A stretch of 64,000 nucleotides of DNA. Origin: a virus. A model generated the notes under the pieces. The model searched no databases, had not been told where the DNA came from, and saw only the letters and a program-made list of their open reading frames with translations. Shown piece after piece: positions 43,178-60,985 of this stretch. Positions within the stretch are counted from its first letter, which is position 1. The number at the start of each line of letters is the position of its first letter. A program made the translations under genes and the position numbers. The stretch is from the IMG/VR virus record IMGVR_UViG_3300014501_000003, positions 1 to 64,000 of that record; one strand, given 5' to 3'.

Positions 43178-44248
43178 TTAGAAGGAAGTATCTCCCGTAG
43201 TCAATTCCGCCGACACGACCGCTTCGTTCGTCGCGTTGATGGTCGCTTTGGCCGCGAAGGTCGTTTTCAGAAGGTCCGGCCCGTCGATCGGGAACTCCGC
43301 GCCGGACATGATGAAGACGTTCGGCATCTTGAAGAGGAACAGGTTGGGTTTGCCCGAGGTGCCGATGTTCGCCCCGGTCGCCTGAGCGATGATTTCCTGG
43401 GCTTCGTTTTTGAGGAACGTTTCCAGCACGTTCTTCGCGGCTTCGGTGTTATCGCATTCGCAGGAGACGCCGATGTCCACCAGCCCGTTTGACACCGGGA
43501 GCGACTTTTCGTTTTCCCCGAGGTACCAGCGGTCGGTGGCCAGCTTGTGCTCGAGCGTGACCGTCATCTTTCGCACGCCCGCGAGCGCTGCGGTTCCGCC
43601 GGGGTTGCCGATCTTGAATTCCGAGGAGCCTTCGTTCATCGCGAACGGCACGCCGTTGGTGGTGAACGTCGGCAGCGTCGGGTTGGCGTTGGGTGCGACG
43701 TGGCGGAAGTCGATGTCGTAGCTGTAGGAGCACAGCCCCATGCGGTCGAACACGAACTCCGCCTTGGTCGGGATGCCGGCGGTGTAGCGCCAGCCGACGT
43801 TTTCGGAGTTCGTGTACGGCAGGCCGACTTCGATGTCCAGGAACGTGGATTCTTTCGCGGCGTCGTGGGACTCGGGGGCTTCGAGGTTGATCCCTTTGAT
43901 GCCCGTTCCCGTGAAGAGCTGGTAGGCGGCTCCTGTGCCCGACTCTTTCAGCGTGCCGTTCGACCCGAACGCGCTCACGAGCAGCAGCGCCTGGGCAGTC
44001 GTCATCACGTCGCCGGTGAGCGTCGCTTTGGCGTCGATGCCCATCTTGACGAGCGCCGAGCCGATGTCCGCGATGCGGCCAGCTGCCAGATACGGGCCGC
44101 CCTGCACCTTGTGCGGGTCCCAGGTCGGCTTGAACGTCTTGAAGTACAGCGTCCGGGGTGAGCCCGTGACGAACGCTTCGTTGTATTCTTTGTGCCGCGC
44201 GACGGTGGCCCATGCGCCGAGCCCCGAGCCGGAAGTGAAAGTAGTCAC
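43178..44248 (-). CDS. Major tail (tube) protein, 356 aa
   Basis: Call rests on position upstream of the chaperone and tape measure, size, and beta-rich composition. GTG start in a GTGA overlap. Confidence 0.8.
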   Translation of the reverse strand: MTTFTSGSGLGAWATVARHKEYNEAFVTGSPRTLYFKTFKPTWDPHKVQGGPYLAAGRIADIGSALVKMGIDAKATLTGDVMTTAQALLLVSAFGSNGTLKESGTGAAYQLFTGTGIKGINLEAPESHDAAKESTFLDIEVGLPYTNSENVGWRYTAGIPTKAEFVFDRMGLCSYSYDIDFRHVAPNANPTLPTFTTNGVPFAMNEGSSEFKIGNPGGTAALAGVRKMTVTLEHKLATDRWYLGENEKSLPVSNGLVDIGVSCECDNTEAAKNVLETFLKNEAQEIIAQATGANIGTSGKPNLFLFKMPNVFIMSGAEFPIDGPDLLKTTFAAKATINATNEAVVSAELTTGDTSF

Positions 44249-44478
44249 TCTGCTGCTCCTTGGTTATCCGGCACCGCCGGGGTTTGTGTGTCACGTCTCT
44301 GCTTGAACGCCAGCTCGGCCGCTAGGCCCGCTCGCGGGTCCTGCGCCGACCAGCGGCCGGTGTTCAGCAACTGCTCGGCGGTGTCTGCGTCGAAGTCGCC
44401 TCCGTCGCCGGGGCGGACCGCCGGGTTGTTGGCGCCGCCGACTACCTCCGGTGAGTGGCTCACGTTGTAGAGCCGCAT
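44245..44478 (-). CDS. Hypothetical protein, 77 aa
   Basis: AAGGGGG precedes ATG 44478. Confidence 0.6.
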   Translation of the reverse strand: MRLYNVSHSPEVVGGANNPAVRPGDGGDFDADTAEQLLNTGRWSAQDPRAGLAAELAFKQRRDTQTPAVPDNQGAAE

Positions 44479-44489
44479 GTCGGCCCCCT

Positions 44490-45032
44490 TCACCAGTGAT
44501 GATGCGTCGCGTGCCCGCTCTTGTCGGGCGCGTTCCCGTGCATGTGCCACGGCCGCGTTATGGCTCGGTGCACCGAGCGCTCAAGGTCTTGCCACTTCGC
44601 ACAGCGCAGCGGCTCGATCCGCGCCTGCGCGGTGATCTTCACGAGCCCGATCGCGGACCAGTCGGCCCACTCCTCGCCGCCCTGCAAGTGGTGCGCCCAG
44701 TCTCCGGTGCCTGCGGCGATGATCCCCTCGGAGTGGCCCGTGGTGATCCAGTGGCACTCGTAGACCCATGAGCAGAGCGGGTGCGGGCAGGCCACGAGCT
44801 CGTCCAGGTGCGCGTCTGAGACCTCGATGTCGTGCTCGACGTTGACGATCGTGAGGTCTGAGTCCCAGAGGGCCTCAAGCGCTATCGCGTAGTCGAAGTC
44901 GCCGCGGCACAACGCGGGCTGGACCGGATAGCGGCTTGAGTGGAAGTGCCCCTCGCCCTCAAGGTGGGAGGCGAGGACGACTACCCGAGCTGGGGACTCG
45001 GAGAGATGATCGCCTTGAACGTCAGCGCCCAA
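44490..45032 (-). CDS. VEHD-family paralogue 2 (unknown function), start uncertain
   Basis: VVVLASHLEGEGHF, TIVNVEHDIEV, CPHPLC and GEEWADWSAIGLVKI are shared with 56044..56526. TTG 45032 follows GGGGAGGGG. No canonical start near the conserved N-terminus. Confidence 0.6.
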   Translation of the reverse strand: MGADVQGDHLSESPARVVVLASHLEGEGHFHSSRYPVQPALCRGDFDYAIALEALWDSDLTIVNVEHDIEVSDAHLDELVACPHPLCSWVYECHWITTGHSEGIIAAGTGDWAHHLQGGEEWADWSAIGLVKITAQARIEPLRCAKWQDLERSVHRAITRPWHMHGNAPDKSGHATHHHW

Positions 45033-45517
45033 TCGATCACCCCTCCCCAGCCGCCGGGTTGACCGGCGATGATGTCGAGCCCTGCGGTGTAGTCGGCCTG
45101 GATCGGGAACATGACCTGCGCGCTCGGGCCCGTGGTGCCGAAGGTCGGCTGATTTCGGTTGGCGATGGCGGGGCCCGCCACACATTCGCCGAACAGCTCG
45201 AAGGTCTGCGCCATCACTTCGGCCGCGAGTTCGGCTGCGCGCGCCGGTTCCGTGGCTGGCGGGGTTTCGCCGGTGAAGTAGCTCGCTTTCCCCTGGATCT
45301 CGTATTCCTCCGCGAGCTGGATCGGGATGGCGTGCCAGTCATACCGAGGTCCCTTGATCGGGCCGACGATGATGTAGCGGGCGGGCTCGAACTGGGCGAG
45401 CGCGCCGGGGAACACGCTCACGGGCTTGGACTGTTCCTCGGCGGCTTCGCGGACGAGCTTCAAGAGGCCCGCGTAGATGCCGGGGACCGAGGAGACGAAG
45501 GCGGTCGGTTCGGTCAC
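44981..45517 (-). CDS. Head-tail joining or tail terminator-like protein, 178 aa
   Basis: GTG 45517 sits in a GTGA overlap. The call is based on position only. Confidence 0.65.
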   Translation of the reverse strand: MTEPTAFVSSVPGIYAGLLKLVREAAEEQSKPVSVFPGALAQFEPARYIIVGPIKGPRYDWHAIPIQLAEEYEIQGKASYFTGETPPATEPARAAELAAEVMAQTFELFGECVAGPAIANRNQPTFGTTGPSAQVMFPIQADYTAGLDIIAGQPGGWGGVIDWALTFKAIISPSPQLG

Positions 45518-46164
45518 CCGATGCCTACCTGCGTGTAGTTGTTGAGCCGGGCTTTGACCTCGGGCAGCATCCCCGGCAGCAGGCCCGGCTCGACCTCCCC
45601 GTGCTCGCCGACCATCTGCGGAGCCCCGCCGCGTGACGCCTGCTGCTCCTTGCGCCACTCGTGCGCGATCTGTTTCAGCGTGGCGTTGCGGATCGGCGGC
45701 GGGAGCGGGTCATAGCCCGCGGTCCACACCACCTCGATGTTTCGCAGGCCGGGGAAGAACGGGCGCGGCACGAGCCCCTGGAAGGACCGCACGATGTAGC
45801 CCCGCAGCGGGTCGATCGTGAACATTTCGTTCGAGCCCTGGTGCTCGGGGGTCTGTTCTTCGAGGACGTGTTCGCCGTTGACGCCCCAGAACTCAGCGAC
45901 ACGCTGCACGCTCTGGATCGGGTAGTAGGGCAGCATCAGCGTGTTGCCGCTCCACACCGAGAAGCGTTTGGCGAACAGCGTCGGGGCGAACGGGCGGCCG
46001 AGCTCGTCTTGGAGCCACCAGCACACGTCGTCGACGACTTCCTTGAGCTTCGTCTCTTCGCCCGCGACCGGGACGTCGCCCATCTGTAGCCAACTCTTTA
46101 CGTCCAGGTCCACGTCAAGGTAAGTGGTCCACTGCGGGCTACCGTCGTAGTTGTACGTGGTCAT
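45514..46164 (-). CDS. Head-tail adaptor/connector-like protein, 216 aa
   Basis: ATG 46164 follows GGGGGTGG. The call is based on position. Confidence 0.65.
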   Translation of the reverse strand: MTTYNYDGSPQWTTYLDVDLDVKSWLQMGDVPVAGEETKLKEVVDDVCWWLQDELGRPFAPTLFAKRFSVWSGNTLMLPYYPIQSVQRVAEFWGVNGEHVLEEQTPEHQGSNEMFTIDPLRGYIVRSFQGLVPRPFFPGLRNIEVVWTAGYDPLPPPIRNATLKQIAHEWRKEQQASRGGAPQMVGEHGEVEPGLLPGMLPEVKARLNNYTQVGIG

Positions 46165-46177
46165 CGCCACCCCCGAG

Positions 46178-46183
46178 TAGACT
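46178..46183 (+). promoter_or_regulatory. -10-like TAGACT, 7 nt upstream of the EndoVII ATG
   Basis: TAnnnT hexamer with no SD between it and the start. Confidence 0.35.
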
Positions 46184-46190
46184 CCGCAGG

Positions 46191-46736
46191 ATGATGTCGA
46201 AGGCATGTTCGGAGTGCGGCGACTCCTTCTCGCTGACCTCCGGCCGCCGTCTGACATGCAGCGAGCGGTGCGCCGGCAAGCGGCACTACCGCTTGCGCTG
46301 CGAGCGCCATCCGCTCGTGCGGCCTACGCTCACGCCGCAGCCGTGCATCGAGTGCGGAACGATCTTCCAGCCGACGGTCCCGAACCGGAAATACTGCTCG
46401 AAGGTCTGTAGCAGGAAGGTGGCGAGCCGCGCTATCGAGAAACGCCTCGGCGGCTCGCGCGCTCGGACGCTGTGGTTCAACTACAAACTGACGCTGGCTG
46501 CGTTCGACGCGCTGCTGGCCGCCCAGGGCGGCGTCTGCGCAATCTGTGGCAGTGACGATCCGGGGGCGGCGAACTGGTGCGTCGATCACGACCATGCCTG
46601 CTGCCCGACGAAGGGTCGGTGCTGCGGCAAGTGCGTCCGGGGCCTGCTCTGCGACATGTGCAACCGCACTCTCGGCACCGCCAAGGACGACCCCGACCGC
46701 CTCCGCAAAGCGGCGGCCTACCTGGAGCGCGGCTAG
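46191..46736 (+). CDS. Endonuclease VII-type nuclease with N-terminal zinc ribbons, 181 aa
   Basis: CAICGSDDPGAANWCVDHDHACCPTKGRCCGKCVRGLLCDMCN matches the EndoVII pattern. Confidence 0.85.
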   Translation: MMSKACSECGDSFSLTSGRRLTCSERCAGKRHYRLRCERHPLVRPTLTPQPCIECGTIFQPTVPNRKYCSKVCSRKVASRAIEKRLGGSRARTLWFNYKLTLAAFDALLAAQGGVCAICGSDDPGAANWCVDHDHACCPTKGRCCGKCVRGLLCDMCNRTLGTAKDDPDRLRKAAAYLERG

Positions 46737-46741
46737 CCCCC

Positions 46742-47077
46742 TCATCCGCCGGGGGTTTCTTTCGGGAGCAGCGAGCCGAGGTCGGTCGCGCCGGGGCCGA
46801 CCGGCACGGTGATCCAGAACGTCTCGGGCGACGCGCCGGTGATGCGGAAGTCCACTCGGTACTGACTGTCGCCCGGGGCCGTGCCCGTGTCTACGTTGGA
46901 GGGGAGTTCGACGGAGAGTTCGCCGGTGCCGCTCAGGGCGGCGGAGACGGGGCCGGGCACGATCGTTTCGGCACCGTTCGTGATCCGCTTCGAGAGCGTG
47001 AACTCGATCGCGCCGGAGGCCGCCGCGCCGCTGGGTTCGGTCAGCTTGTGAGTGATCGTCCTCTTGGTGAAAGCGAT
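46742..47077 (-). CDS. Beta-sandwich-like structural protein, 111 aa, proposed ATC start
   Basis: Track ORF starts at GTG 46960. The frame is open and protein-like a further 39 codons up to ATC 47077, which lies 6 nt after GGAGG. Confidence 0.5.
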   Translation of the reverse strand: MAFTKRTITHKLTEPSGAAASGAIEFTLSKRITNGAETIVPGPVSAALSGTGELSVELPSNVDTGTAPGDSQYRVDFRITGASPETFWITVPVGPGATDLGSLLPKETPGG

Positions 47078-47090
47078 GACGCACCTCCGT

Positions 47091-47096
47091 TAGACT
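47091..47096 (+). promoter_or_regulatory. -10-like TAGACT, 6 nt upstream of GTG 47103
   Basis: Same hexamer as upstream of the EndoVII gene. Confidence 0.35.
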
Positions 47097-47102
47097 CGGC
47101 GC

Positions 47103-47255
47103 GTGACCTACCGCGACGTGACCTACTACATGGTCGGGCTGGTGATCGGGGCGCTCATGTACAGCGGCGCGACATGGCACCGCCTCGTGGCCCTCGCCAT
47201 CGTCGGCCTCATCTGCTTCGGTTGGGTCTACTTCCGCCGCCGCGCTAAGTCGTGA
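47103..47255 (+). CDS. Small two-TM membrane protein, 50 aa (below the track cutoff)
   Basis: Hand translation gives VTYRDVTYYMVGLVIGALMYSGATWHRLVALAIVGLICFGWVYFRRRAKS. GTGA-coupled to the next ORF. Confidence 0.45.
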   Translation: MTYRDVTYYMVGLVIGALMYSGATWHRLVALAIVGLICFGWVYFRRRAKS

Positions 47256-47452
47256 GCATCCTGCGAATCAAGACCGATGAGGCAATCCGCGAGCGCTACG
47301 GCCCAGAGCCGAGCCCGTACGCCGACTGGCCGCAGACCTTGCGCTGTCAGCAGATCGAAGCCGCCAACGCGATGCGCGAGCTAGTCACGCAGCTCCTGAC
47401 GGTCTTTGCTCACGCCCTTCGCCGCGCCCTTCCTTCCAGCTCGACCCCATAG
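47252..47452 (+). CDS. Hypothetical protein, 66 aa
   Basis: Track ORF. Its 3' end overlaps the convergent glycosyltransferase gene. Confidence 0.4.
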   Translation: MSILRIKTDEAIRERYGPEPSPYADWPQTLRCQQIEAANAMRELVTQLLTVFAHALRRALPSSSTP

Positions 47453-48035
47453 GCCCCACCTCTGCCCGCTCCAAGTAGTAGGCGTCCTCGGCGTCGGGCT
47501 CTCGGACGTACCACGATCCGTGGCGGGCGAGATAGGGTGCCCCGGTCCTGATCGCCTCGTACTCGAACTCTGCACCGGGGCGGTAGAGGGCGAACGTCGT
47601 GTCGATCAGCGAGTCGAAGACTCCGGGCGACGTTTCACGCGAAACCAACTGGCGCTCCCAGCCCTTGCTCGGGAACTCCACGTCGTCCAGATAGAGCCCC
47701 AGCCCTGCCTTGGAGTAGCCGGGGTGAGCGTCGAGTAGAGCCTGAAGGTGGGCCACGGCATCGAGGGGGCAGGAGTCCAGTGGCACGATGTCCGGGTCCG
47801 TGAGGACGAACGGCTCATCGGGCACCATCTCGGCCTCCCACAGCGCCCTGGAGCCGAGGTTGTTGCCGAGCCAGCGGACCTCGTGGCGGGTACCCGCTAG
47901 GTACCTCAGCAGCGGCATGTAGGTCGAGGCGTTGTCGAGGAACACGATCCGGTGGCCTGCGCGCTCAAGCCACTCGACCAGCTTGCGGAGATCCCGCAGG
48001 CGATCCCTTACCGTGATGTAGACGGTGATGTCCAC
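47385..48035 (-). CDS. GT-A fold glycosyltransferase, 216 aa
   Basis: ITVYITVRDR, RIVFLDNAST and LTDPDIVP (DxD). GTG 48035 chosen as start. Confidence 0.75.
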   Translation of the reverse strand: MDITVYITVRDRLRDLRKLVEWLERAGHRIVFLDNASTYMPLLRYLAGTRHEVRWLGNNLGSRALWEAEMVPDEPFVLTDPDIVPLDSCPLDAVAHLQALLDAHPGYSKAGLGLYLDDVEFPSKGWERQLVSRETSPGVFDSLIDTTFALYRPGAEFEYEAIRTGAPYLARHGSWYVREPDAEDAYYLERAEVGPMGSSWKEGRGEGREQRPSGAA

Positions 48036-48742
48036 AGGTGCCGGCGGCTTCGATAGAGAGCCCGGTCGGCCTCCATCGTCGCGTGCCCTTTGCGGTAGGT
48101 GGCGTCCATCTCGCCCTTGCCTGCGGCGGGGTGCTGGTGCTCCACGATCGCTCCGTCGGCGCGCATGAGCTTCCCGCGCGAGCGCGCGACCTCCCAGCAC
48201 TCAGAATCGCTGTAGTTGTGGTCATAGCCCGGGTAGATCACGACGCCGGGCACGTCCACACACCCCGACTGCTCCTCGATGTAGCGGCGGGAGACGAGCG
48301 CGTTCGTGCCATTCGCGTTGTGCAGGTCGTTGACCACGACCACGCCCTCGACCCTGCGCATGGTGCTCAGCGCCGCTGCGAGCCATCCTCGCTGGAACAG
48401 CACGTCATCTGCGCCGAGGAACACGTACGGGGCCTCGGTGGCGTGGAACAGGCGATTGATCCGGTTCGGCCAGGTGTCCCCGTCATCGCGCAGGAACGCG
48501 GCCCCGTGGCGTTCGAGCTCGTCCACGGTGGGCTGATCGGAGGCGGCGAAGACGACGCGGTGGGGCTCGGTCGTGGCGTCGGCGATGTTCGCCAGCAGGG
48601 GTTTGATCCGGTGCGGGCGGTCGAGGACCGGGATCAGGATCGCCGTGCTCAGTTCGTGACGTTCCGCGTCGCACGGCCGTGGGTGCGCAGCGCTTGGGGC
48701 ACACACACAAACCTGGCATCCATGTCCAGGAACTTGAGCCAT
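48008..48742 (-). CDS. GT-A fold glycosyltransferase, start uncertain
   Basis: AILIPVLDRP and FLGADDVLF. ATG 48742 follows GGAGG but GC3 is low there. Alternatives are GTG 48706 and CTG 48652. Confidence 0.7.
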   Translation of the reverse strand: MAQVPGHGCQVCVCAPSAAHPRPCDAERHELSTAILIPVLDRPHRIKPLLANIADATTEPHRVVFAASDQPTVDELERHGAAFLRDDGDTWPNRINRLFHATEAPYVFLGADDVLFQRGWLAAALSTMRRVEGVVVVNDLHNANGTNALVSRRYIEEQSGCVDVPGVVIYPGYDHNYSDSECWEVARSRGKLMRADGAIVEHQHPAAGKGEMDATYRKGHATMEADRALYRSRRHLWTSPSTSR

Positions 48743-49188
48743 AGCAAATAGTCCTCCACGATGTGCGAGACCGGATAGCCGCCCGCCCGCCGGAGCGTCT
48801 CGGTGCGGATGCACGCCTCCCCGTCGATGTAGTTATCGCCGCTGCGCAGCCGCTCGGCATCGAAAGGTCCCCAGGAGTGGGGGTGCCCGCGGCAGTAGGA
48901 GTAGACGACATCGGCGCCGTCGAGGTGCTGGGCCATGAGCTCCAGATACTCGGGGTCGAACGTGTCGTCATCGTCGAGGACCGCGATCCACTCTGTCTCG
49001 ATGGCGGCGAGGATCGCGTTGCGCTGGCGGGCGACGTGTTCGCAGCCGAAGCGGTCGGGCTCCTCGACCCGCACCAGCCACGGCACCGGGCCGATGGTCT
49101 GGGCTCTCACCGATGCGCCGGCCTTCGCCAGCAGCTCGTGGCGCTCAGGAATCGAGACTGTGACGACCGTGAAAGGGGATCGGGTCAC
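48649..49188 (-). CDS. GT2 glycosyltransferase, 179 aa
   Basis: GGAGG lies 6 nt before GTG 49188. TVVTVSIPERHELL and IAVLDDDDTF. Confidence 0.85.
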   Translation of the reverse strand: MTRSPFTVVTVSIPERHELLAKAGASVRAQTIGPVPWLVRVEEPDRFGCEHVARQRNAILAAIETEWIAVLDDDDTFDPEYLELMAQHLDGADVVYSYCRGHPHSWGPFDAERLRSGDNYIDGEACIRTETLRRAGGYPVSHIVEDYLLWLKFLDMDARFVCVPQALRTHGRATRNVTN

Positions 49189-49855
49189 GGACCACCTCCG
49201 CGGCCTGCATCTCGTTCCAGGCGGCTCGCAGCTCCTCATCGCCGGAGCCGTCCAGGCGGGTCATATGTGCGCCGTCGCCGCGCGCCCGGCCCACCGGATC
49301 GAGCGTGGCGCAGCGTTCGCGCACCTTGCGCTTGAAGTGCTCAAAGCCGCGGAACTGGTAGTGGCGGACTTCGAGCAGTCCCCATGTTCCGCCGGGGAGG
49401 CTCACGTCATGGTTGCCGGGAGCGATGTGCGCCTCCTCGGTCCAGCGGTAGGCGACCTTCGGCAGTCGCTCCGGTGCCGCGTACTTCAGCTCCCAGGTCT
49501 GGTGGTGCCAGAGCTGGGCGTAGAGCTTGCCGCCAACACCGAGCGCGAGGGCCTGTGCGATGGGTTTGCCGCCCGTGGCGAACCAAAACTCGTCAGCATC
49601 GAACGGGAGTATCCACTCGGTGCCCGCCTCGGCTGCCAGGTAGTCGATCCAGTAGGGCTGGCGATGGACGGGCTCGTCATCGACAAGCCTGGTGACGCGC
49701 CCGGTTTCCCGTTCCAGCCGCCGCAGAATGTCCGTGGTGCCGTCCGTTGAGGCATCGGCGATCAGGAGCTTGTCCACGCCGCCTGCGAGCAGGCACCGGA
49801 CGGACGCCTCGATGATGTCGGCCTCGTTGCGGACGGTGGAGACGGCTGCGATCAC
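49145..49855 (-). CDS. GT2-like glycosyltransferase, 236 aa
   Basis: VRNEADIIE, LLIADASTDGT and LPFDADEF. GGGAGG precedes GTG 49855. Confidence 0.85.
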   Translation of the reverse strand: MIAAVSTVRNEADIIEASVRCLLAGGVDKLLIADASTDGTTDILRRLERETGRVTRLVDDEPVHRQPYWIDYLAAEAGTEWILPFDADEFWFATGGKPIAQALALGVGGKLYAQLWHHQTWELKYAAPERLPKVAYRWTEEAHIAPGNHDVSLPGGTWGLLEVRHYQFRGFEHFKRKVRERCATLDPVGRARGDGAHMTRLDGSGDEELRAAWNEMQAAEVVRDPIPFHGRHSLDS

Positions 49856-49872
49856 GACGTGCCTCCCGGCCT

Positions 49873-49878
49873 TATGCT
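49873..49878 (+). promoter_or_regulatory. -10-like TATGCT, 6 nt upstream of ATG 49885
   Basis: TAnnnT hexamer with no SD. Confidence 0.35.
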
Positions 49879-49884
49879 TCGACG

Positions 49885-50295
49885 ATGAGCAGGATGGCCG
49901 CGTTCTACGGTGGCCCTTGGCATCAAGAGGAACACTCCGTGCCGGAGCCGATGCCGTTCGACATCCGCGTGCCGCTGCCCGTTGAGCCGATGGTGTTCGT
50001 CTCCCCGGAGCCGCCGCTGGCCCCTGATCTCCTGCTGCGCGTCGCGCGCTATGAGCGCCGCCGCCGCGAGCCCGCGTGGGTCTACGTCTGCGTGGACGAC
50101 GGGCACCCGCTGCCGAAGTGGACCATCGCTGTCATCACGCCGTGGGATGGCGAGGAAGGTGACGAACTCTTCGAGAACGTGGCGACCATCAGCGCGCGCA
50201 CCGCCGAGCACGCCGAACGCATCTACGGCAATCAGCACCCCTATGACCGGGACTACTGCTTCGTGTACGCGCGACCGCTGGGAGAACCCTGGTGA
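49885..50295 (+). CDS. Hypothetical protein, 136 aa, opposite strand inside the glycosyltransferase block
   Basis: Track ORF with high GC3. Confidence 0.65.
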   Translation: MSRMAAFYGGPWHQEEHSVPEPMPFDIRVPLPVEPMVFVSPEPPLAPDLLLRVARYERRRREPAWVYVCVDDGHPLPKWTIAVITPWDGEEGDELFENVATISARTAEHAERIYGNQHPYDRDYCFVYARPLGEPW

Positions 50296-50304
50296 CTAAC
50301 GGCC

Positions 50305-50991
50305 CTACGGCACCGCCACGAAGTGCTCCATGCCCCCGAGCGTCCCTTCGACGTGGGAGAACCCATCGAACCACGCGGGGTCAACGGGGCTCGGCCACCA
50401 TGGCTCATGCGTGGAGAGGTGCAGCGGGATGCCGCGCTCGGCGAGGAACGGCGCGACCGTCTCCAACACCAGCGCCTCCATGCCCTCGATGTCCATCTTC
50501 ACCAGACAGCAGTCCTCGATCGAGTAGTTCTCGAACAGCCGCTCGAGCGTGAAGCACGGCACCGTCTCCGTGGCCTCTGAGGCCTCATAGCGGATCACCG
50601 AGGACATGGCGGTCGCCCAGCCCTGCGGGTGGCTTGAGAGCTCGCAGGTGCCGTTGTAGTCGGCCAGGGCTCCATGGACGCAGCGGACCTTGCCGGGGAC
50701 GTTCCGCTCGACGTGGCGGGAGAGGAACTCGAAGGCCACTCGGTCGGGCTCTACGGCCACCACGTCGGCCCCGCGCTCTGCGCAGCCCATCGAGTGAGCA
50801 CCGATGCAGGCCCCGAGGTCCACGAACGTCGAGCCGGGCCTCACGAAGCGGTCCAGCACCTCAAGCGTGTCGTTCTCCCAGTTCTCGGCCTCCCACTGTT
50901 TCCAGAAGCCGGGGAACGGGCCTTCGGTGTAGGGAGCGGTCGGGGTGGGTTCGTCCACCTCCCAGGTCATGCCGCGTCGGGTGACGATCAC
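50305..50991 (-). CDS. FkbM-family SAM-dependent methyltransferase, 228 aa
   Basis: FVDLGACIGAHS and LVKMDIEGME. GTG 50991 is GTGA-coupled to a mini-ORF. Confidence 0.8.
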   Translation of the reverse strand: MIVTRRGMTWEVDEPTPTAPYTEGPFPGFWKQWEAENWENDTLEVLDRFVRPGSTFVDLGACIGAHSMGCAERGADVVAVEPDRVAFEFLSRHVERNVPGKVRCVHGALADYNGTCELSSHPQGWATAMSSVIRYEASEATETVPCFTLERLFENYSIEDCCLVKMDIEGMEALVLETVAPFLAERGIPLHLSTHEPWWPSPVDPAWFDGFSHVEGTLGGMEHFVAVP

Positions 50992-51119
50992 TCCAATATC
51001 CAGCGGATGCCGCGTCGGTGGCCATAGCCGGTTGGCATTGTGAGCCAGACGACATGCGTCGCGCCCGTCCAGTTGGCCTGCGAGCCTGCGATTGGCGTGT
51101 CGAGCCGCGTGCTGTTCAC
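50988..51119 (-). CDS. Small protein, 43 aa (below the track cutoff)
   Basis: GTGA overlaps at both ends. Translates VNSTRLDTPIAGSQANWTGATHVVWLTMPTGYGHRRGIRWILE. Confidence 0.45.
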   Translation of the reverse strand: MNSTRLDTPIAGSQANWTGATHVVWLTMPTGYGHRRGIRWILE

Positions 51120-51766
51120 TCCATCCACCCCGCCATCCTCTCATGGCCGATGTGCTCGACCCTCGGCTCATCCTCGATCCGTCCGAGGTAGCCGAAGCGG
51201 TAGCCGTGCTCGAGCAGCGTGTCGGTCACGTTGGGCTCTGAGAGCGGGCGCCCGCTCCTCAATGCCAGTTGGATCACCCGCGCGGGGATCAGCGAGGGGT
51301 TCGTCGTGAAGTTCGTCTCATGCTCGATCCACCCGTCGCGCTGGATGAACTCGCCGGGTTTGGTCTGCATGAAGCCGCCGGCCGCCTGCTCCTCGGCGTT
51401 GACGGGCTGGCGCTTCAGGGCGAGCTGGGCGATGTGCGGATGGGCGTCGAGCAGGCTCGCCATCGCCATCAGGTCCACGGGCTCGTTGTAGGTGAAGTCA
51501 TCCTCGGCGTGGAAGACGTACTCGGCGCCGGAGCGGATCACCTCGCGCCACACGGACTCGACGGCGGCGGCAAAGCCACGGCGCTGCTCGTGCACGAGGC
51601 TCGTGTAGTCCACATATCGCATCACGGCGGCGAAGTCCGGGTCGCCCGAGTCATCGACCATGACGCATTCATCGGGCCACGGGTCCAGCGACGCGCGCAG
51701 GCTCTCCACCGCTCGCTCTAGGCACTCCTCGCGCCCGTCCGTGGTGACGGCGAGGGCGAAGCTCAC
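51116..51766 (-). CDS. GT-A fold glycosyltransferase, 216 aa
   Basis: VSFALAVTTDGR, VMVDDSGD and FHAEDDF. GTG 51766 sits in a GTGA overlap. Confidence 0.75.
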   Translation of the reverse strand: MSFALAVTTDGREECLERAVESLRASLDPWPDECVMVDDSGDPDFAAVMRYVDYTSLVHEQRRGFAAAVESVWREVIRSGAEYVFHAEDDFTYNEPVDLMAMASLLDAHPHIAQLALKRQPVNAEEQAAGGFMQTKPGEFIQRDGWIEHETNFTTNPSLIPARVIQLALRSGRPLSEPNVTDTLLEHGYRFGYLGRIEDEPRVEHIGHERMAGWME

Positions 51767-51879
51767 CGTCGCCTCACCCGCCCACAGCGCCCACAGCGCA
51801 TGTAGGAGCGGAGCCACGGCTCGTCATAGTGGACGCCGATGAGACAGAGCAGGTGGCCGAGGAGGCGCAGGCATCTCAC
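51763..51879 (-). CDS. Small Cys-containing protein, 38 aa (below the track cutoff)
   Basis: GTGA overlaps at both ends. Confidence 0.4.
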   Translation of the reverse strand: MRCLRLLGHLLCLIGVHYDEPWLRSYMRCGRCGRVRRR

Positions 51880-52019
51880 GCGCCCCAGACCTTCGGCCTT
51901 GGCGGCAGTCCCCGCGCGCGATCAATCACGCGGTACAGATCGACCTTCAGATCATGTTCACGCGCGAGCCGGGCGCGTTCCGCCTTCGTCCGCTTGAGGC
52001 CCTTCGCCTTGCGCTTCAC
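51876..52019 (-). CDS. Small basic protein, 47 aa
   Basis: GTG 52019 sits in a GTGA overlap. Translates VKRKAKGLKRTKAERARLAREHDLKVDLYRVIDRAR... Confidence 0.45.
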   Translation of the reverse strand: MKRKAKGLKRTKAERARLAREHDLKVDLYRVIDRARGLPPRPKVWGA

Positions 52020-52153
52020 GGCTCGATGACGGCCTGCTTGCCGCCGATCTTGATTGCGCACTGACCGCAGTAGGGCAGTTTGCGACCGTCGAGGAAGGTG
52101 ATGACTTTGCGGGCCTCGCGCTCGCAGGTGCCAGTCGAGCACGGTGGCCTCAC
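52016..52153 (-). CDS. Small zinc-ribbon-like protein, 45 aa (below the track cutoff)
   Basis: GTG 52153 sits in a GTGA overlap. CSTGTC ... CGQC. Confidence 0.45.
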   Translation of the reverse strand: MRPPCSTGTCEREARKVITFLDGRKLPYCGQCAIKIGGKQAVIEP

Positions 52154-52680
52154 CGCCAACACCCATGCGCCGGCCCGACCTTCCACGGCGAAGCGGGCGA
52201 GTCCTCATCCCTCAAGTGCTCCAACGGTGGCCCGTGAACGTGCATGATCTCGCCTCCGGGGTTCAGGACGTGGGATTGGAGCCAAGAGTCTAGGCGGCAC
52301 CAGTGCTTCGGAGGATGATCCTCATCGCTCAGCTCGCCGACCACGTCGAGCGCGTCGGGATAGCGGGCGATCAGCCCGGCCGAGAACTTCGCACACGACA
52401 GGCCCGCATACACCCGGCCGACGTAGGGCACTTGGTAGGAGCACCACGGCTCGTGACACTCCACAAGGGCATCGAGGGTGCCGGGGCGGACCACCACGTC
52501 GTGCTCGACGCAAATGAAGGTGCGCCTGTTTGCCCACAGGCTTGCCAGCAGCTCCCAATACGCCTCATCTGAGCCGGACACATCTACGAAGGCCACATCC
52601 CACCCTGCCAGTGCCTCGACTACCTCGGAGCGGAGGGGAGGGACGTAGGGGCAGGCGATGGTGGTTTCGTGGCCTCTCAC
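52150..52680 (-). CDS. VEHD-family paralogue 3 (unknown function), 176 aa
   Basis: TFICVEHDVVV, CHEPWC, LSCAKF and MHVHG are collinear with the other two paralogues. Confidence 0.7.
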   Translation of the reverse strand: MRGHETTIACPYVPPLRSEVVEALAGWDVAFVDVSGSDEAYWELLASLWANRRTFICVEHDVVVRPGTLDALVECHEPWCSYQVPYVGRVYAGLSCAKFSAGLIARYPDALDVVGELSDEDHPPKHWCRLDSWLQSHVLNPGGEIMHVHGPPLEHLRDEDSPASPWKVGPAHGCWR

Positions 52681-53078
52681 TTCCGCGCCTCAAGCACGGC
52701 CCGCCAAGGGTCGAGGTCGGCCAGGTGCGCCGCCATCGCCAGCTCGAACTCGTCGAGCGTGATGTGCTCGTCGAGGTACAGGCCCTTGACCCAATCGGCG
52801 GTCGGGTCGTCATCGTCGCTGGCCACAGTCTCCCGGCGGGGTAGCCAGGCGTGGCGGCTGCGGACCACCGACACTAGGCCCGCGCCGATCAGCGCCACGG
52901 CGAACGGCCCCATCCATATGAGCAGGGCGATGACACCGGGTGTGCCGATGTGTTGGTTGACTCCGTGACCCACTTCCGTCGAGCTCGCCACAGCGCCGAA
53001 GCCCACCGCGCCGCCCACGAGCCAGCCGACGGCCAGAGCCACACCGAACTCGCCCAGGTTTCGCCACTCGCGCCTCAC
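52677..53078 (-). CDS. Membrane protein (2-3 TM), 133 aa
   Basis: Track ORF with hydrophobic segments. Confidence 0.7.
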   Translation of the reverse strand: MRREWRNLGEFGVALAVGWLVGGAVGFGAVASSTEVGHGVNQHIGTPGVIALLIWMGPFAVALIGAGLVSVVRSRHAWLPRRETVASDDDDPTADWVKGLYLDEHITLDEFELAMAAHLADLDPWRAVLEARK

Positions 53079-53146
53079 ACCACGAACAGGCTAGCGGCGG
53101 GCCAGTCGGGGGAGGGCGACGGTGGTTTCGTGGCCCCTGTCAGACA
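53079..53146 (-). pseudogene. Chimeric remnant: 5' end of a VEHD-type gene fused to the 3' end of a 54366-type gene
   Basis: 53116..53138 matches 52655..52677 at about 21/23 positions (encodes RGHETTVALP versus RGHETTIACP). 53075..53110 aligns with 54366..54398 at 27/33 positions with a 3-nt indel (PDWPAASLFVV-stop versus PGWPAANLFV-stop). Confidence 0.55.
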
Positions 53147-54369
53147 TGCAGCGTGATCGTGACCTCTGCGCGGAGTCCCGGGTGGATGACGCTCAGCCGG
53201 ACTTCCGTGCTCACCGGCTGGACGTACTGCCCCTGTAGGCCGCCCACGTAGTACGCCATCGGGGCCGCGCCCATGTTCATATCCATGCCCCGGATCATGC
53301 CCCGCTCTAGCCAGGGGACCAGCTCGCGGACCCGCCGTTCGAGGCCGGTGCCGTAGTGCCCGCCCCAATTGTCGGGGAACAGCGGCTCGTGTTTCTCGGG
53401 GCCGAGCAGCCACGCCTCGGCTTCGGCGTGCAGGATTTCAGGGACCGGCTCAGCGCCAAGCTCGCGCGCCAGCGCCTCTGCGTCCTCCCAGCGGTCGAGC
53501 ACGCGGACGCCGTACTCCTCGGCGAGAAGGTCTAGGCCCGCGAGCCCTCCCGCCATCTCGACAGCCTGCATCGAAGCGCCGCACCGGTAACACGAAAGCC
53601 TCGCGCCGTTGACCGACCACGCGTGCGGGCAGTTGCGGTCAACGTCATCAACGCGTGACCTGTCGATGATGCCGACAAGCTCGGCGGTTTCCGCGCGCCA
53701 GCCGTCTGGGTGGATGATCAGGTTGCCGTACCCGATCACGACCGCGCCGACGGCGTAGGCGCCCACGCTGCCCGCGATGGCCTCCGGAGTCGAGTGGGCG
53801 TAGAGCCCGCAGGCGCAGTCCTCTTGCGGCGCGTTGTGTGCGGCAACCGTGGTGGCGACGCACTTCGCGCGCTGGGGCTCGCGCGTGATCGGCCAGCTCG
53901 CTTCGACGCCCGTCGATTTGAGTGGCCCCGTGCCGTCCCACTTGAACGCGCGGTAGCCGATGGCTGGCGCTTGGAGCTGGGCGGTCACGCGGGGACGGGC
54001 TCGGGCTTGCGCACGGGCTCCGCGGGCTCCGGGAGCACGAGCGGCTCCCGCTTCGGAGCCGGAGCGACCGCTGGCACCGTTCCCGGCTTGAGTCCCATGC
54101 CGCGATTCTACGCCCGTGGCCCGTCGCAGGTCTTGCTCGATGATGTCCACGATCACGCCATGCTGCCCCACGTCGCTGACGAGCTGAAGCGAGATCGCCT
54201 CGCCGACCACCGTCCCATTGGGCAGCCGCTTCCACGCCACCACCTGCGCGCGTGCCTGCGACCCGCCGAATCGGTAGGCCAGCGCACTCGGCACCTCGGC
54301 GGGCGTCTCCGCGAGCCGAATCCCTCGCTTGCCCAGCACTCGCCGCAACTCTGCCGTTGCATGGCTCAC
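53140..54369 (-). CDS. Hypothetical protein, 409 aa
   Basis: Track ORF with a GTG start in a GTGA overlap. Confidence 0.75.
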   Translation of the reverse strand: MSHATAELRRVLGKRGIRLAETPAEVPSALAYRFGGSQARAQVVAWKRLPNGTVVGEAISLQLVSDVGQHGVIVDIIEQDLRRATGVESRHGTQAGNGASGRSGSEAGAARAPGARGARAQARARPRVTAQLQAPAIGYRAFKWDGTGPLKSTGVEASWPITREPQRAKCVATTVAAHNAPQEDCACGLYAHSTPEAIAGSVGAYAVGAVVIGYGNLIIHPDGWRAETAELVGIIDRSRVDDVDRNCPHAWSVNGARLSCYRCGASMQAVEMAGGLAGLDLLAEEYGVRVLDRWEDAEALARELGAEPVPEILHAEAEAWLLGPEKHEPLFPDNWGGHYGTGLERRVRELVPWLERGMIRGMDMNMGAAPMAYYVGGLQGQYVQPVSTEVRLSVIHPGLRAEVTITLHV

Positions 54370-54971
54370 ACGAACAAGTTAGCCGCTGGCCAGCCGGGAT
54401 TCAGGTCGAGGACTCGCGGCTCCCCCATCCCGATCCACCGCTCCGCATCGAACCGACTCCTACTCGGGGGCTCCGGGAGAGAGCGCAGGTAGTCACACCG
54501 CGCCATCCAGAAGTTGCCCCCGAAGAACGGGGTCCTGATCGCATTGGGGAAGGCGTCGGGGGTCAGCCAGTGGCAGCCCACCGCGTCGTAGGACTCCAAG
54601 GCTTCGAGGTTGGAGCGCCAGTTGTCGATCACCCGCAGGCACATCGACCTTCGCCAGTCCGCCCGGAACTTCGTCACGTCTGAACTTCCCTTGGTATGCG
54701 CGTACATGCAGGCGCCGTCATTGGTCTGAACCCACTCGCGCAGGGCGTTGATCGTGACCTGCTCGTAGCCCTCGTCAGCTTCGGCGGCGACGGTCACATC
54801 GGGGAGCGGGCTGAAGGCGTCTGCGGCTGCTTCTCGCCAGAACTTCTCACCGACGAGGCCGAGATAGACCGGGCCGGTGAACTCCGCTTTCAGGAGCGTG
54901 TCGACCTGTTCTAGGACGGGCTCTGTCCAGTCTCCGTCAGCGAAAATATGGTAAAAATGCGATAGATGCAC
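54366..54971 (-). CDS. Hypothetical protein (YAHTKG / FGGNFW motifs), 201 aa
   Basis: GTG 54971 (or TTG 54977) avoids the antisense overlap with the plus-strand HNH-like gene. Confidence 0.65.
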   Translation of the reverse strand: MHLSHFYHIFADGDWTEPVLEQVDTLLKAEFTGPVYLGLVGEKFWREAAADAFSPLPDVTVAAEADEGYEQVTINALREWVQTNDGACMYAHTKGSSDVTKFRADWRRSMCLRVIDNWRSNLEALESYDAVGCHWLTPDAFPNAIRTPFFGGNFWMARCDYLRSLPEPPSRSRFDAERWIGMGEPRVLDLNPGWPAANLFV

Positions 54972-54980
54972 CGTCAACCG

Positions 54981-54989
54981 TGATATGAT
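54981..54989 (+). promoter_or_regulatory. Extended -10-like TGATATGAT, 6 nt upstream of ATG 54996
   Basis: TGn plus TATGAT in a local AT-rich patch. No SD. Confidence 0.4.
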
Positions 54990-54995
54990 TGTGTC

Positions 54996-55592
54996 ATGCC
55001 CAAAGAGCTTGACGTGATGGGCCACCGGTTCGGTCGGCTGATTGCCATTCGGAAGATCACGCCCCCCGGAACGCGCAGTAAGTGGGAGTGCCGATGTGAC
55101 TGTGGCGCCATCACCATTGCAGCGCTCTCGCACCTACGAGGGGGACAGACTCGCTCATGTGGTTGCCTCCGTCGTGAGGTTTCAGTAGCCCTGTTCACAA
55201 GGATCGGACGCCAAAACGCCGGCAAGCGCGTCAAACACGGCCACGCGCCTTACAGCCGCAAACGCTCCCCTACCTATGGGAGCTGGTCCGCGATCAAAAC
55301 ACGCTGCCTCAACCCCAACGCCACGGACTACGAGAGGTACGGCGGGAGTGGAATCAAACTCTGCGAGCGCTGGCTCAAGTTCGAGAACTTCCTGGCCGAC
55401 ATGGGCGAGGCACCGGGGCCGGGCTACCAAGTCCACCGCAAGGACTCGGCGCGCGGCTATGAACCGGGCAACTGCGAATGGCTCACGAAGGGCGCCCACT
55501 CTACGTTGCACGGCAAGGAACGCGCCGCGAGGGGCGAACTCGGCCAAGGCCCGCGCGATCCCGTGACTGGTCGCTTCACTCGGGGCGCTTGA
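54996..55592 (+). CDS. Zn-ribbon + HNH_3-like homing-endonuclease-like protein, paralogue A, 198 aa
   Basis: FGRLIAI, CRCDCG, SCGC, YGGSGIKLCERW, ADMGEAPGPGY and GNCEW are shared with 57095..57706 and 60986..61492. Confidence 0.8.
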   Translation: MPKELDVMGHRFGRLIAIRKITPPGTRSKWECRCDCGAITIAALSHLRGGQTRSCGCLRREVSVALFTRIGRQNAGKRVKHGHAPYSRKRSPTYGSWSAIKTRCLNPNATDYERYGGSGIKLCERWLKFENFLADMGEAPGPGYQVHRKDSARGYEPGNCEWLTKGAHSTLHGKERAARGELGQGPRDPVTGRFTRGA

Positions 55593-56034
55593 CTGGCCAC
55601 GCCTTCGGGTAGCAGCGCTGGACGATCCGCCATCCGAGCTGGTGCTGGCAGGCGTGGATGCCGTCCACGAACTCGCGCAGTTCGTCGGGGTGGCGGCGGT
55701 CGAGCTGGCCGAAGGCGTTGACTGCGGCGACAAGGTGGCCGCTGACCTCACGCTCGGGGGCGGTCAGGCCATCCACGAACGCCAGATCGTCCTCCGGTGG
55801 CGACCGGAACGCGCCCGTGTCGGCCACCGGCTCCGCTGACTCGGCAAAGAACGCGCGGTCGGAGTCGCGCTGGCCCTGCGCTTCGGCCGCCGAGTAGTCG
55901 CTCTCCTGCACGCGGGACTGGAAGTAGGGCATGAGCCCGGCGGCAAGCTCCGTCGCCCGCTCCAACTTCTCGATGAGCGCGTCGACCTCCGTCGAGTCGA
56001 TCCCGATCTTGATCGTTGAAGTAGTCCGCGCCAT
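55576..56034 (-). CDS. Hypothetical protein, 152 aa
   Basis: Track ORF. Confidence 0.7.
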   Translation of the reverse strand: MARTTSTIKIGIDSTEVDALIEKLERATELAAGLMPYFQSRVQESDYSAAEAQGQRDSDRAFFAESAEPVADTGAFRSPPEDDLAFVDGLTAPEREVSGHLVAAVNAFGQLDRRHPDELREFVDGIHACQHQLGWRIVQRCYPKAWPVKRPE

Positions 56035-56043
56035 GCCCGCAGC

Positions 56044-56526
56044 TTATACGTGATGATGAGCCGTGGCCGGCCAATGCACATGGACCTGCTGCTGCACCGA
56101 GGCGAACACCGCGATGTCCACGAACTGCCATGTGCTCTCAGGCAACGGCCGAACCCGAACCTCCGGCGCGATCTTGCAGAACCCGATCCCCCCGAAGTCC
56201 GCCCACTCCTCGCCCTCCTCGATCCACACTCCTCCACACGGGGGCTGTCTGCCGGTGCGGTGTGACCAGTGCGGCCCTCCCGAGACGGCGTTGAGCCAGT
56301 AGGCGTGCGTGCAGAAGGGCTCGGGGCAGTCGAGCAGGGTTTGGATCAGGTCGTCTGAGCACTCCATGTCGTGCTCGACGTTGACGATCGTCTTGTCGGA
56401 CTCCCACCACTCGGCGACTCCGGCGCAGTAGGACTCGGGCTCGACGCACTCGATCGGCCAGACCTCGAAGCGCTCGGACTCGAAGTGGCCTGCACCGGGG
56501 AGATGCGAGGCGAGGACGACGGTCAC
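56044..56526 (-). CDS. VEHD-family paralogue 1 (unknown function), 160 aa
   Basis: MTVVLASHLPGAGHF, TIVNVEHDMEC, CPEPFC, GEEWADFGGIGFCKI and HVHW...HHHV. Confidence 0.7.
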   Translation of the reverse strand: MTVVLASHLPGAGHFESERFEVWPIECVEPESYCAGVAEWWESDKTIVNVEHDMECSDDLIQTLLDCPEPFCTHAYWLNAVSGGPHWSHRTGRQPPCGGVWIEEGEEWADFGGIGFCKIAPEVRVRPLPESTWQFVDIAVFASVQQQVHVHWPATAHHHV

Positions 56527-56750
56527 ACGGGCGGTGCGCAGCGCGGGTGGTAGACGCGGGTCGGGTGGTCATCCGCAATGACGGTGCCCATCGTCCATCC
56601 TTCGCACTCGATTGCGCCGGGCGGCAATGACCAGAAGCCGGGGACGCAGACCTTCTCCTCCTCAAAGCTCAGCCGCTTCCCGCACCCGGAGCAGACATCG
56701 GGCATCGCCAGCACGCCCGTCTTGCCCACCGGCAGAGTCTCCGTGTCCAT
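56523..56750 (-). CDS. Zinc-ribbon protein, 75 aa
   Basis: Track ORF with CSGCGK. Confidence 0.65.
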   Translation of the reverse strand: MDTETLPVGKTGVLAMPDVCSGCGKRLSFEEEKVCVPGFWSLPPGAIECEGWTMGTVIADDHPTRVYHPRCAPPV

Positions 56751-57098
56751 CTAGCGAGTCTCCCTCACGACCGACTCGACCTCGACCAGCTCGCCGCCAC
56801 GATTGACGAAGTGGCGAAGCGTCCTCGCCCCGACCGGGCAGAGATAGAGTTCGCCCGCGTGGGCCTCCGGGCCCCGCCGGCAGTTCAAGCAGCAGCCGCC
56901 CGTCTCATCCGGCGTCCATCGCTTGCGCATATCCGCGCCCATCTCCGACACCATCTGGTCGTGAACCTCCCGCTCATGCGCCGGATCGGGTCCGGCCGCA
57001 CGTAGCTGAGCCGAGACGCGCGCCCCGCCCTCTCCCTCGTTGATCCCGATACCTCGCGGGGTCTTGATCTGCTCGGGCGGTAGGGGCTGCGGGGTCAC
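56751..57098 (-). CDS. Hypothetical protein, 115 aa
   Basis: Track ORF with CCLNC...C. Confidence 0.65.
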   Translation of the reverse strand: MTPQPLPPEQIKTPRGIGINEGEGGARVSAQLRAAGPDPAHEREVHDQMVSEMGADMRKRWTPDETGGCCLNCRRGPEAHAGELYLCPVGARTLRHFVNRGGELVEVESVVRETR

Positions 57099-57706
57099 GG
57101 CTTCTCCTGTTCCATGTCGGCTCGCACGAGCGTCACGAGCTCGGCTCGCGTCATCCCGAGCGCTTTGGCCACCGCGGCAAGGCTGATCGCCGGGCGTCGC
57201 TGTCGGCTGTTTCGTACCTGCTCAGACCGTGTCGCCCATCGGCAGTTTCCCGGTTCGTAGTCGCCGTCGTTGTCGATGCGGTCGAGTGTGTACTCAGGGC
57301 CAGGCTTCTCGCCCATATCGGTGAGAAAGTTCGGGAAGCCATCTGGTCCCTGCCAGCGCTCGCAGACAGTGATCCCGCGGCCGCCGTAGTTCTCCCACGA
57401 TGGGTCCCTTTGGTTTCTACAGCGCGCACGCATGAGCGTCCACGTCATGTAGAGCGGATGTCTTGACTTGCGGAACGCATAGCCGTGAACGCGCGGCCCG
57501 CTCGGAAGGTTTCGCTGCGATGTCTGCCGTACGAGACACCCACACGACCGCGTGTGTCCGTTCGCCAGATGGTTAGCGGCGACCACCGTCGTCTTTCCGC
57601 AGGAGCAGAGGCATCGCCAAGCTGTTTGCGTGCCGATATTCGCCACGCGCTCCTGCACGGTCAACCGTCCGAACTGCTGTCCGGCTTGATCGATAAATGC
57701 TCCCAT
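57095..57706 (-). CDS. Zn-ribbon + HNH_3-like homing-endonuclease-like protein, paralogue B, 203 aa
   Basis: [63 protein letters not shown]. Confidence 0.8.
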   Translation of the reverse strand: MGAFIDQAGQQFGRLTVQERVANIGTQTAWRCLCSCGKTTVVAANHLANGHTRSCGCLVRQTSQRNLPSGPRVHGYAFRKSRHPLYMTWTLMRARCRNQRDPSWENYGGRGITVCERWQGPDGFPNFLTDMGEKPGPEYTLDRIDNDGDYEPGNCRWATRSEQVRNSRQRRPAISLAAVAKALGMTRAELVTLVRADMEQEKP

Positions 57707-60847: not shown

Positions 60848-60967
60848 GTGCCTTGTCCTTTCGTGTGGGTTTTGTGTTCCCCACGCGATCCCGAACCGCA
60901 CTCCGGACATTGCCAGCAGTACTCGGCTTTTCGCCTTTCCTCGACCTAGCAGGGTGACCGTCGTGCG

Positions 60968-60976
60968 TGGTACTAT
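60968..60976 (+). promoter_or_regulatory. Extended -10-like TGGTACTAT, 9 nt upstream of ATG 60986
   Basis: TGn plus TACTAT. No SD. Confidence 0.4.
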
Positions 60977-60985
60977 CGTGGTCTG

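Follow-up and report, generated by a model that had tools for sequence, protein, structure and literature searches.

What is the role of three small, mutually similar genes of no recognised family that lie scattered through the structural operon of a tailed phage? The question is raised by a 64 kb piece of a high-GC (~66%) tailed-phage genome (IMG/VR virus record IMGVR_UViG_3300014501_000003, positions 1 to 64,000; hereafter the window), in which a reading of the sequence alone had pointed to three open reading frames (ORFs) that share a V-E-H-D motif and flank a block of glycosyltransferase genes. We refer to these genes as copies A, B and C. GT-A is the fold of nucleotide-diphospho-sugar transferases, in which a D-x-D motif that binds the metal and the diphosphate stands at the end of a core strand. 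Based on their relationships, predicted structures and genomic context, we propose that A, B and C probably form a previously unnamed, sequence-orphan family of miniature (160-180 residue) GT-A enzymes, whose most likely role would be glycosylation of the virion.

Three related genes in one operon

All three ORFs are present on the minus strand where the sequence-only reading had placed them, and a six-frame profile search of the window found exactly three copies of the family:

56044..56526, minus strand: copy C, 160 residues; E51-H52-D53 encoded at 56368..56376; C67/C72; H149-x-H151...H157
52150..52680, minus strand: copy B, 176 residues; E59-H60-D61 encoded at 52498..52506; longer C-terminal tail; no GEEWAD
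44490..45032, minus strand: copy A, 180 residues from TTG 45032; E66-H67-D68 encoded at 44829..44837; by synteny, between the connector gene 44981..45658 and a small ORF at 44245..44478, which the tail-tube gene follows

Copies C and B begin at GTG codons (56526 and 52680), each of which overlaps the stop of the upstream gene by 4 nucleotides, and A begins at a TTG (45032) with GGAGG 9 nucleotides upstream. The start of the longest ORF containing A, at 45185, was rejected: it would overlap the upstream gene by about 200 nucleotides, and it is unlikely because homologues begin near the residues VVLASHL. The three genes are translationally coupled within the late operon. Their third-position GC of 0.80-0.86 resembles that of the other genes of the operon and is as expected for real genes in a 66% GC genome.

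Judged from sequence comparison, the copies are true, old paralogues. A and C are 39% identical over 166 residues, that is, over their full length (E 3e-33), and the direct matches of A to B (E 2e-7) and of B to C (E 5e-7) each cover only ~45 residues around VEHD...C..P.C. A profile made from 105 A- and C-type homologues, from which every B-type sequence was excluded, matches B at E 2.3e-12 in two collinear pieces, and a profile of B-type sequences only matches A at 4e-7 and C at 2.6e-5. The alignment of A- and C-type sequences was joined to that of the B type by HHalign over 119 columns with a probability of 98.2% (E 3.2e-14). The resemblance on which the earlier reading was built is well above chance under both the profile and the HHalign comparison. 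Among the motifs that it listed, TIVNVEHD or TFICVEHD, C(P/H)xP(x)C and a His-rich C-terminus can be seen in all three copies; GEEWAD..IG..KI, which it had also assigned to all three, occurs in A and C but not in B, which has GLSCAKFSAGLI at the aligned position. The 14 identical nucleotides that it had noticed at the N-termini of A and C are real (GTCGTCCTCGCCTC), and a longer run of 26 identical nucleotides lies in the same two genes over TIVNVEHD.

Size and conservation of the family

Metagenomes contain many relatives of these genes, with 182 matches among 90%-identity clusters and 1,878 representatives of 50%-identity clusters at E <= 1e-3 (469 at E <= 1e-10). As the family is invisible to Pfam, PHROG and NCBIfam, its members are annotated everywhere as 'hypothetical', and all of the 182 matches carry that label. 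The 120 closest members divide into 73 A-like, 34 C-like and 13 B-like sequences. In three other searches the family was not encountered: tblastn of C, B and three distant members against 50,697 GenBank phage records found none, megablast of positions 44000..57000 (13 kb) against GenBank phages gave no nucleotide match, and a scan of GTDB genomes with A-type patterns yielded no confirmed locus.

Conservation is concentrated in a small set of acidic, Cys, His and Trp residues. Over the three subfamilies (115 sequences), no variation is seen in either acidic residue of E-H-D, in the first Cys of C-x4-C, in two His of the C-terminal H-x-H-x5-H or in two Trp; a Trp of this invariant set lies in a late helix. 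Changes are rare at the His within E-H-D, at the second Cys and at the first His of H-x-H. In a distant set (n=97) the D, both Cys and one His are still the same throughout, and the E and the remaining two His almost always are; members at ~20-30% identity retain (I/V)EHD, C..x..C and WH(V/I)HWPxVxHxH. One protein of 432 residues (P0198; L025 107..1405, on a single 2 kb metagenomic contig) contains two B-like domains in tandem, separated by a linker of ~100 residues, a possible hint that B-type proteins act as dimers. On a 5.6 kb contig (L024 1786..5143), a distant member (P0262) adjoins a gene for a protein-primed family B DNA polymerase (PF03175), so the wider family is not confined to actinophages of the window's type.

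Predicted fold and putative metal site

An AlphaFold2 model of C built from the 115-sequence alignment has a pLDDT of 96.2 and a pTM of 0.91, and a model of B from its own alignment is of lower confidence (pLDDT 75.5). In a Foldseek search of the PDB, the best match of the C model is A197 of Sulfolobus turreted icosahedral virus (STIV; E 1.1e-4, TMq 0.62, probability 1.00), followed by the glycosyltransferase parts of the human LH3/ColGalT1 complex (TMq 0.60, probability 1.00) and, further down, by mimivirus R699 (TMq 0.62, probability 1.00), GlfT2 and B4GALNT1. Among the predicted viral structures of BFVD, C has 17 matches at E <= 1e-3, mostly annotated as glycosyltransferases or GT-A-type domains. 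The B model retrieves the WrtF fucosyltransferase, LH3, chondroitin synthase and A197. These models indicate that A, B and C very probably have the GT-A fold and belong to the nucleotide-diphospho-sugar transferase superfamily. The sequence-only reading had offered a small GT-A-like nucleotide-sugar enzyme as one of two possibilities, and this suggestion gains support from the confident C model, from its matches to A197 and to viral glycosyltransferases, and from the like result for B.

The conserved residues can be placed on this predicted fold. In the C model E-H-D follows directly after strand 46-50, the site of D-x-D in GT-A enzymes, and an acidic motif of the D-x-D type is found at the C-terminal end of the core strand as the variant E-x-D. 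The sequence V-H-V-H forms strand 148-151, so that H149 and H151 face the same side in the model, and helix 133-142 contains a conserved W..(L/V)(D/E) that might correspond to the helix Asp of A197. The invariant acidic, Cys and His residues would suit a metal-dependent sugar-nucleotide transferase, and with this the second possibility raised earlier, a metal-dependent enzyme, fits as well.

In the human enzyme LH3, Mn2+ is held by two Asp and a distal His, which is the arrangement that we propose for the window family. The glycosyltransferase domain of LH3 modifies proteins and, going by the titles of its PDB entries, was crystallised with Mn2+ and UDP-sugar; in the structural searches this GT-A domain ranks second for C and for B (PDB 8ZGC, 6FXM; TMq 0.60 and 0.43). 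Unlike the window proteins, it belongs to a large multi-domain eukaryotic enzyme whose acceptor is hydroxylysine in collagen, and identity is 8-12%.

A197 of STIV is described as combining a Mn site with a loop that bears DXD and a helix that carries the catalytic Asp, and as an uncharacterised candidate for glycosylation of the coat protein (PMC4187194). Like the window proteins, it is a small single-domain viral GT-A protein (PDB 2C0N) with an acidic metal motif and an acidic residue in a late helix, and in both cases activity is predicted only; the match to C spans 169 columns, and B matches it also. The differences are considerable. Identity is 12%, with no relationship at the sequence level; the window proteins have 160-180 residues as against 197, carry E-H-D instead of D-x-D, and add the invariant C-x4-C pair and the H-x-H-x5-H tail. 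A197 comes from an archaeal virus, whereas the window family is found in a high-GC bacterial tailed phage.

The same fold also serves sugar nucleotidyltransferases, and A, B and C could instead be small sugar-1-phosphate nucleotidyltransferases or cytidylyltransferases that make the activated donor for the neighbouring GT2 enzymes. Enzymes of this kind (1tzf, 1wvc, RmlA, GlmU, IspD and UGPases) occur in both Foldseek lists, and the sequence LPGEGHFRS after strand 1 in A- and C-type copies is somewhat like the G-x-G-x-R loop of nucleotidyltransferases. Their TMq to the C model, however, is 0.38-0.50, against 0.60-0.62 for glycosyltransferases, and they rank lower; in BFVD the annotated matches to E ~2e-3 are all of glycosyltransferase type and the first diphosphorylase appears at rank 33. 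Neither B nor distant members have the G-x-G-x-x-R-like loop, which is therefore not a feature of the family. We consider a donor-making role quite improbable, and the gene arrangements described below bear on it further.

Genomic context in the window

The operon surrounding the three copies is listed here along the minus strand, from high to low coordinates:

62281..63597, minus strand: prohead protease
59183..61066, minus strand: major capsid protein, 627 residues, HK97 type (PF05065 at E 1.5e-4, which falls short of the curated cut-off; homologues in L012, L013 and L023 carry the annotation Phage_capsid)
57738..59084, minus strand: second capsid paralogue, 448 residues (33% identity to the capsid protein over ~450 residues, E 3e-53; PHROG 2263 major head protein)
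57095..57706, minus strand: HNH nuclease, then two small ORFs, then C
after C in the operon order, minus strand: p152
54996..55592, plus strand: HNH-type gene
54366..55133, minus strand: p255, conserved protein of unknown function (phmmer E 1e-65 to 1e-112 against PF27674 (DUF8361)-annotated genes of L001, L002, L011 and L021)
53140..54369, minus strand: p409, with a long Ala/Arg/Gly-rich low-complexity stretch
between p409 and B in the operon order, minus strand: p133, membrane-like
51116..51817, minus strand: GT2 (Pfam)
50305..51171, minus strand: FkbM methyltransferase (Pfam)
49145..49855, minus strand: GT2 (Pfam)
48649..49239, minus strand: GT2 (Pfam)
48008..48814, minus strand: glycosyltransferase (PHROG)
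47385..48200, minus strand: p271, conserved protein of unknown function, contains a TDPD motif
46191..46736, plus strand: endonuclease VII gene, between p271 and the adaptor
45514..46257, minus strand: head-tail adaptor (PHROG 442)
44981..45658, minus strand: connector protein p225, upstream of A
43178..44248, minus strand: tail-tube protein, 356 residues (PHROG 290; homologues carry PF18906 Phage_tube_2), downstream of A
42442..43095, minus strand: HNH-type nuclease
37311..41354, minus strand: tape measure

The capsid paralogue is the first gene of an island of ~12 kb and usually lies just before C; it could supply a second kind of capsid subunit, such as a penton or decoration-like protein. 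A glycan-building block (47385..51817) lies between B and A. Within this block a 136-residue ORF on the plus strand (49885..50295) has a gene-like third-position GC of 0.85 and no family match. The proteins p255 and p271, which frame the island, may likewise handle sugars as enzymes that have escaped recognition; comparison of the family with the p271 and p255 alignments by HHalign gave nothing significant, the best result being p271 at E 0.066 with VEHD aligned to TDPD. Among the loci compared, p409 has a homologue only in L001 (= L004, L016), where two overlapping ORFs share the match. The structural operon is also interrupted by four homing-type nuclease genes (three HNH-type and one endonuclease VII), two of them on the opposite strand; the HNH genes 57095..57706 and 54996..55592 are paralogues with 44% identity (E 3e-47).

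Glycosylation genes lie among the virion genes in cluster O mycobacteriophages. An O-methyltransferase and three glycosyltransferases of these phages modify the capsid and the tail tube, as summarised in PMC11600133, citing Freeman 2023. The window resembles the mycobacteriophage virion-glycosylation sets (cluster O Corndog, cluster F Che8) in that FkbM, three Pfam GT2 genes and the PHROG glycosyltransferase stand between the capsid and the adaptor/connector genes. Unlike the window, those sets are described with GT2-type enzymes of conventional size only, and the miniature genes have no detectable homologue in the GenBank phage records searched. The neighbouring Pfam GT2-type enzymes (PF00535, PF13704 and relatives) resemble A, B and C in their overall fold class and in having an acidic motif where the equivalent strand ends, and are encoded side by side with them; they differ in that the window family is ~60-100 residues shorter and has no Pfam or HHalign link to them. 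What is new here is a sequence-orphan family within the GT-A superfamily that is triplicated in one genome; its fold and general role are unsurprising beside a GT2 block.

The same surroundings bear on whether the sugar acceptor might be phage DNA, with glycosylation of bases (for example hydroxymethylated pyrimidines) as a protection against host restriction. Phages are known to have GT-A-fold enzymes that attach sugars to 5-hydroxymethylcytosine in DNA, and metagenomes contain many of them (bioRxiv 10.1101/2023.12.21.572611), and the window does encode a helicase C-terminal domain fused to an N6/N4 DNA methylase (6284..8659, minus strand, 791 residues). The known DNA-modifying glycosyltransferases, however, cluster with 5mYOX/TET, thymidylate-synthase-like or C5-methyltransferase genes (bioRxiv 10.1101/2023.12.21.572611), none of which was found among the 40 window proteins scanned with Pfam, the window being a 64 kb part of a 71.5 kb contig. 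A search for DNA-hypermodification genes in the rest of the window returned only the helicase-methylase fusion and a lysozyme. Moreover, A, B, C and the copies in related phages are embedded among capsid, connector and tail-tube genes and not in a replication module. We regard DNA as a highly improbable target of these proteins.

Synteny in related phages

The window genes were mapped onto 25 related loci, ~15 of them non-redundant, with flanks of 10 kb. Pattern scans of metagenomes and IMG/VR gave few loci, and the survey of gene order thus rests on these ~15. In loci with the C and B types, the order is capsid, capsid paralogue, (small ORFs), C, (p152), p255/DUF8361, B, variable block, p271, adaptor. 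Wherever a relative has both C and B, p255 stands between them, the one exception being L022, which is without p255; p271 is always the last gene before the adaptor. The capsid paralogue is absent from L012-L014 and L023; where it is present, a C-type copy follows, except in L015. A gene for a Cpn10/GroES-like protein was observed inside the island of L002 (8381..8668; also L003 2034..2321), between the C-type copy and the DUF8361 gene.

Copy B stands at the head of a block of GT2, methyltransferase and epimerase genes whose content changes between relatives. The block consists of GT2 genes and FkbM in the same order as in the window in L002, L007, L008 and L009. In L001 it holds an epimerase, a GDSL esterase and a hexapeptide acetyltransferase, in L011 two epimerases and in L021 one, and in L023 genes of epimerase, GDSL or hexapeptide acetyltransferase type take the place of the GT2 block. 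In L022 only the capsid paralogue, C and B are left of the island, and no further glycosyltransferase can be recognised within 10 kb.

Copy A occupies a slot of its own, always between p225 and an ORF of 70-89 residues that is followed by the tail tube (window, L001, L011-L015, L018, L019 and L023), in the conserved order adaptor, p225, A, small ORF, tube. L012, a prophage with an integrase on an 857 kb contig, and L013 contain A with no island and no other recognisable glycosyltransferase within 10 kb. In three close relatives (L002, L021 and L022) the flanking genes are kept and A is absent, so A is accessory and not structural; the idea that A is a structural connector protein was rejected on the same observation. 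The A slot of some relatives also takes up other genes: L014 has a methyltransferase there, and a GT2-like gene is present both in L017 and, along with a hexapeptide acetyltransferase, in L015.

Sugar-chemistry genes (GT2, methyltransferase, epimerase or acetyltransferase) are present in the same structural module in 11 of the 15 non-redundant loci. The functional link to the glycosyltransferase block that had been suspected from the window is in this sense upheld, but it is not obligatory, as A occurs alone in L012 and L013 and C with B alone in L022. The epimerase or dehydratase genes of relatives need activated sugars, which would favour the donor-making enzymes considered above, but three paralogues in fixed slots beside structural genes, with A alone in L012 and L013, are a poor fit to that task.

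Fixed positions beside structural genes would also be expected if A, B and C were catalytically inactive GT-A-like proteins that serve as assembly chaperones, as specificity adaptors, as partners of GT2 enzymes or virion proteins, or as metal binders for unrelated chemistry. Their very small size leaves little surface for binding an acceptor, the tandem B-like protein P0198 hints at function as a dimer, and the activity of A197, the closest structural match, is itself a prediction. On the other side, the E-x-D, Cys and His residues are strictly conserved over the 1,878 clusters, also in very distant members (~20% identity), which speaks for a retained active or metal site and not for a degenerate pseudoenzyme, and the empty A slot of L002, L021 and L022 argues against an essential role in assembly. 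An inactive family is, in our judgement, distinctly unlikely.

Proposed role and mechanism

Returning to glycosyl transfer as the preferred function, we expect on balance, from the predicted structures, that the proteins are active glycosyltransferases. That virion proteins are their substrate is a more tentative proposal, which we place a little short of even. In the mechanism that we envisage, E-x-D would replace DxD and, with the help of a C-terminal His, would coordinate a divalent metal ion (Mn2+ or Mg2+), to which the diphosphate of a sugar nucleotide from the host would bind. A second, structural metal site might be built from the two Cys with the remaining His, and the acidic residue of the W..(L/V)(D/E) helix might act as the base. 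Late in infection, the sugar would be moved onto a virion protein. Since the family can stand alone while the surrounding enzymes vary between phages, the miniature enzymes may add the first sugar, which the variable block would then extend, methylate or acetylate. Gene position suggests the targets without proving them: C and B, which come after the capsid genes, would act on the capsid, and A, which comes before the tube gene, on the tail tube.

A bolder form of this proposal can be stated. The proteins would be self-sufficient 'priming' protein glycosyltransferases, the smallest GT-A enzymes known, with each paralogue dedicated to the adjacent virion protein (the duplicated capsid proteins for C and B, the tail tube for A) and with two metal sites, a catalytic one of E-x-D/His and a structural one of Cys2-His, and the sugar cassettes would only elaborate the first sugar. 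In this complete form we consider it rather unlikely.

Several observations weigh against the assignment as virion-modifying glycosyltransferases. It rests on predicted structures, the geometry of the metal site was inferred from sequence and secondary structure only, and a TM of ~0.6 with 8-15% identity is typical of a common fold and not of a common function; the nucleotidyltransferases in the Foldseek lists have this fold too. Profile methods add nothing in its favour. Scans of the three copies with Pfam, PHROG and NCBIfam found no matching model (Pfam up to E 1), so that no well-known family is assigned to the proteins, which the earlier reading could not place either; for 97 distant members Pfam gave no match up to E 0.01; among PDB sequences a profile search returned only a chance 'vvvEHD' match to UvrA (E 1.5); and HHalign against the four neighbouring GT2-type genes gave a probability of <1%. 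No cultured phage with the family was found among the GenBank phage records; carrier phages probably have Nocardioidaceae-like soil actinobacteria as hosts. The standing of A, or of C with B, as sole glycosyltransferase holds within the 10 kb flanks only, and a comparison of tail-tube proteins from phages with and without A for a linked C-terminal extension revealed no distinguishing feature.

Significance

Sugar coats alter the recognition of therapeutic mycobacteriophages by antibodies (Freeman 2023, as cited in PMC11600133), and those of phages have so far been ascribed to conventional glycosyltransferases. The family described here is abundant, wholly unannotated and very compact, and the placement of its genes makes the choice of substrate testable. 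If active, it would constitute a new and very compact family of glycosyltransferases that CAZy might list as a new family and that could be useful as a minimal scaffold, as well as a marker for predicting virion glycosylation in uncultured phages. It would also provide a simple system, with one enzyme beside its likely substrate, for studying how phage proteins are chosen for glycosylation, and would show that fold prediction can rescue the annotation of phage 'dark matter' where profile methods fail. Should the priming proposal prove true, gene order could serve to predict the glycan coat for a large group of soil actinophages that are uncultured.

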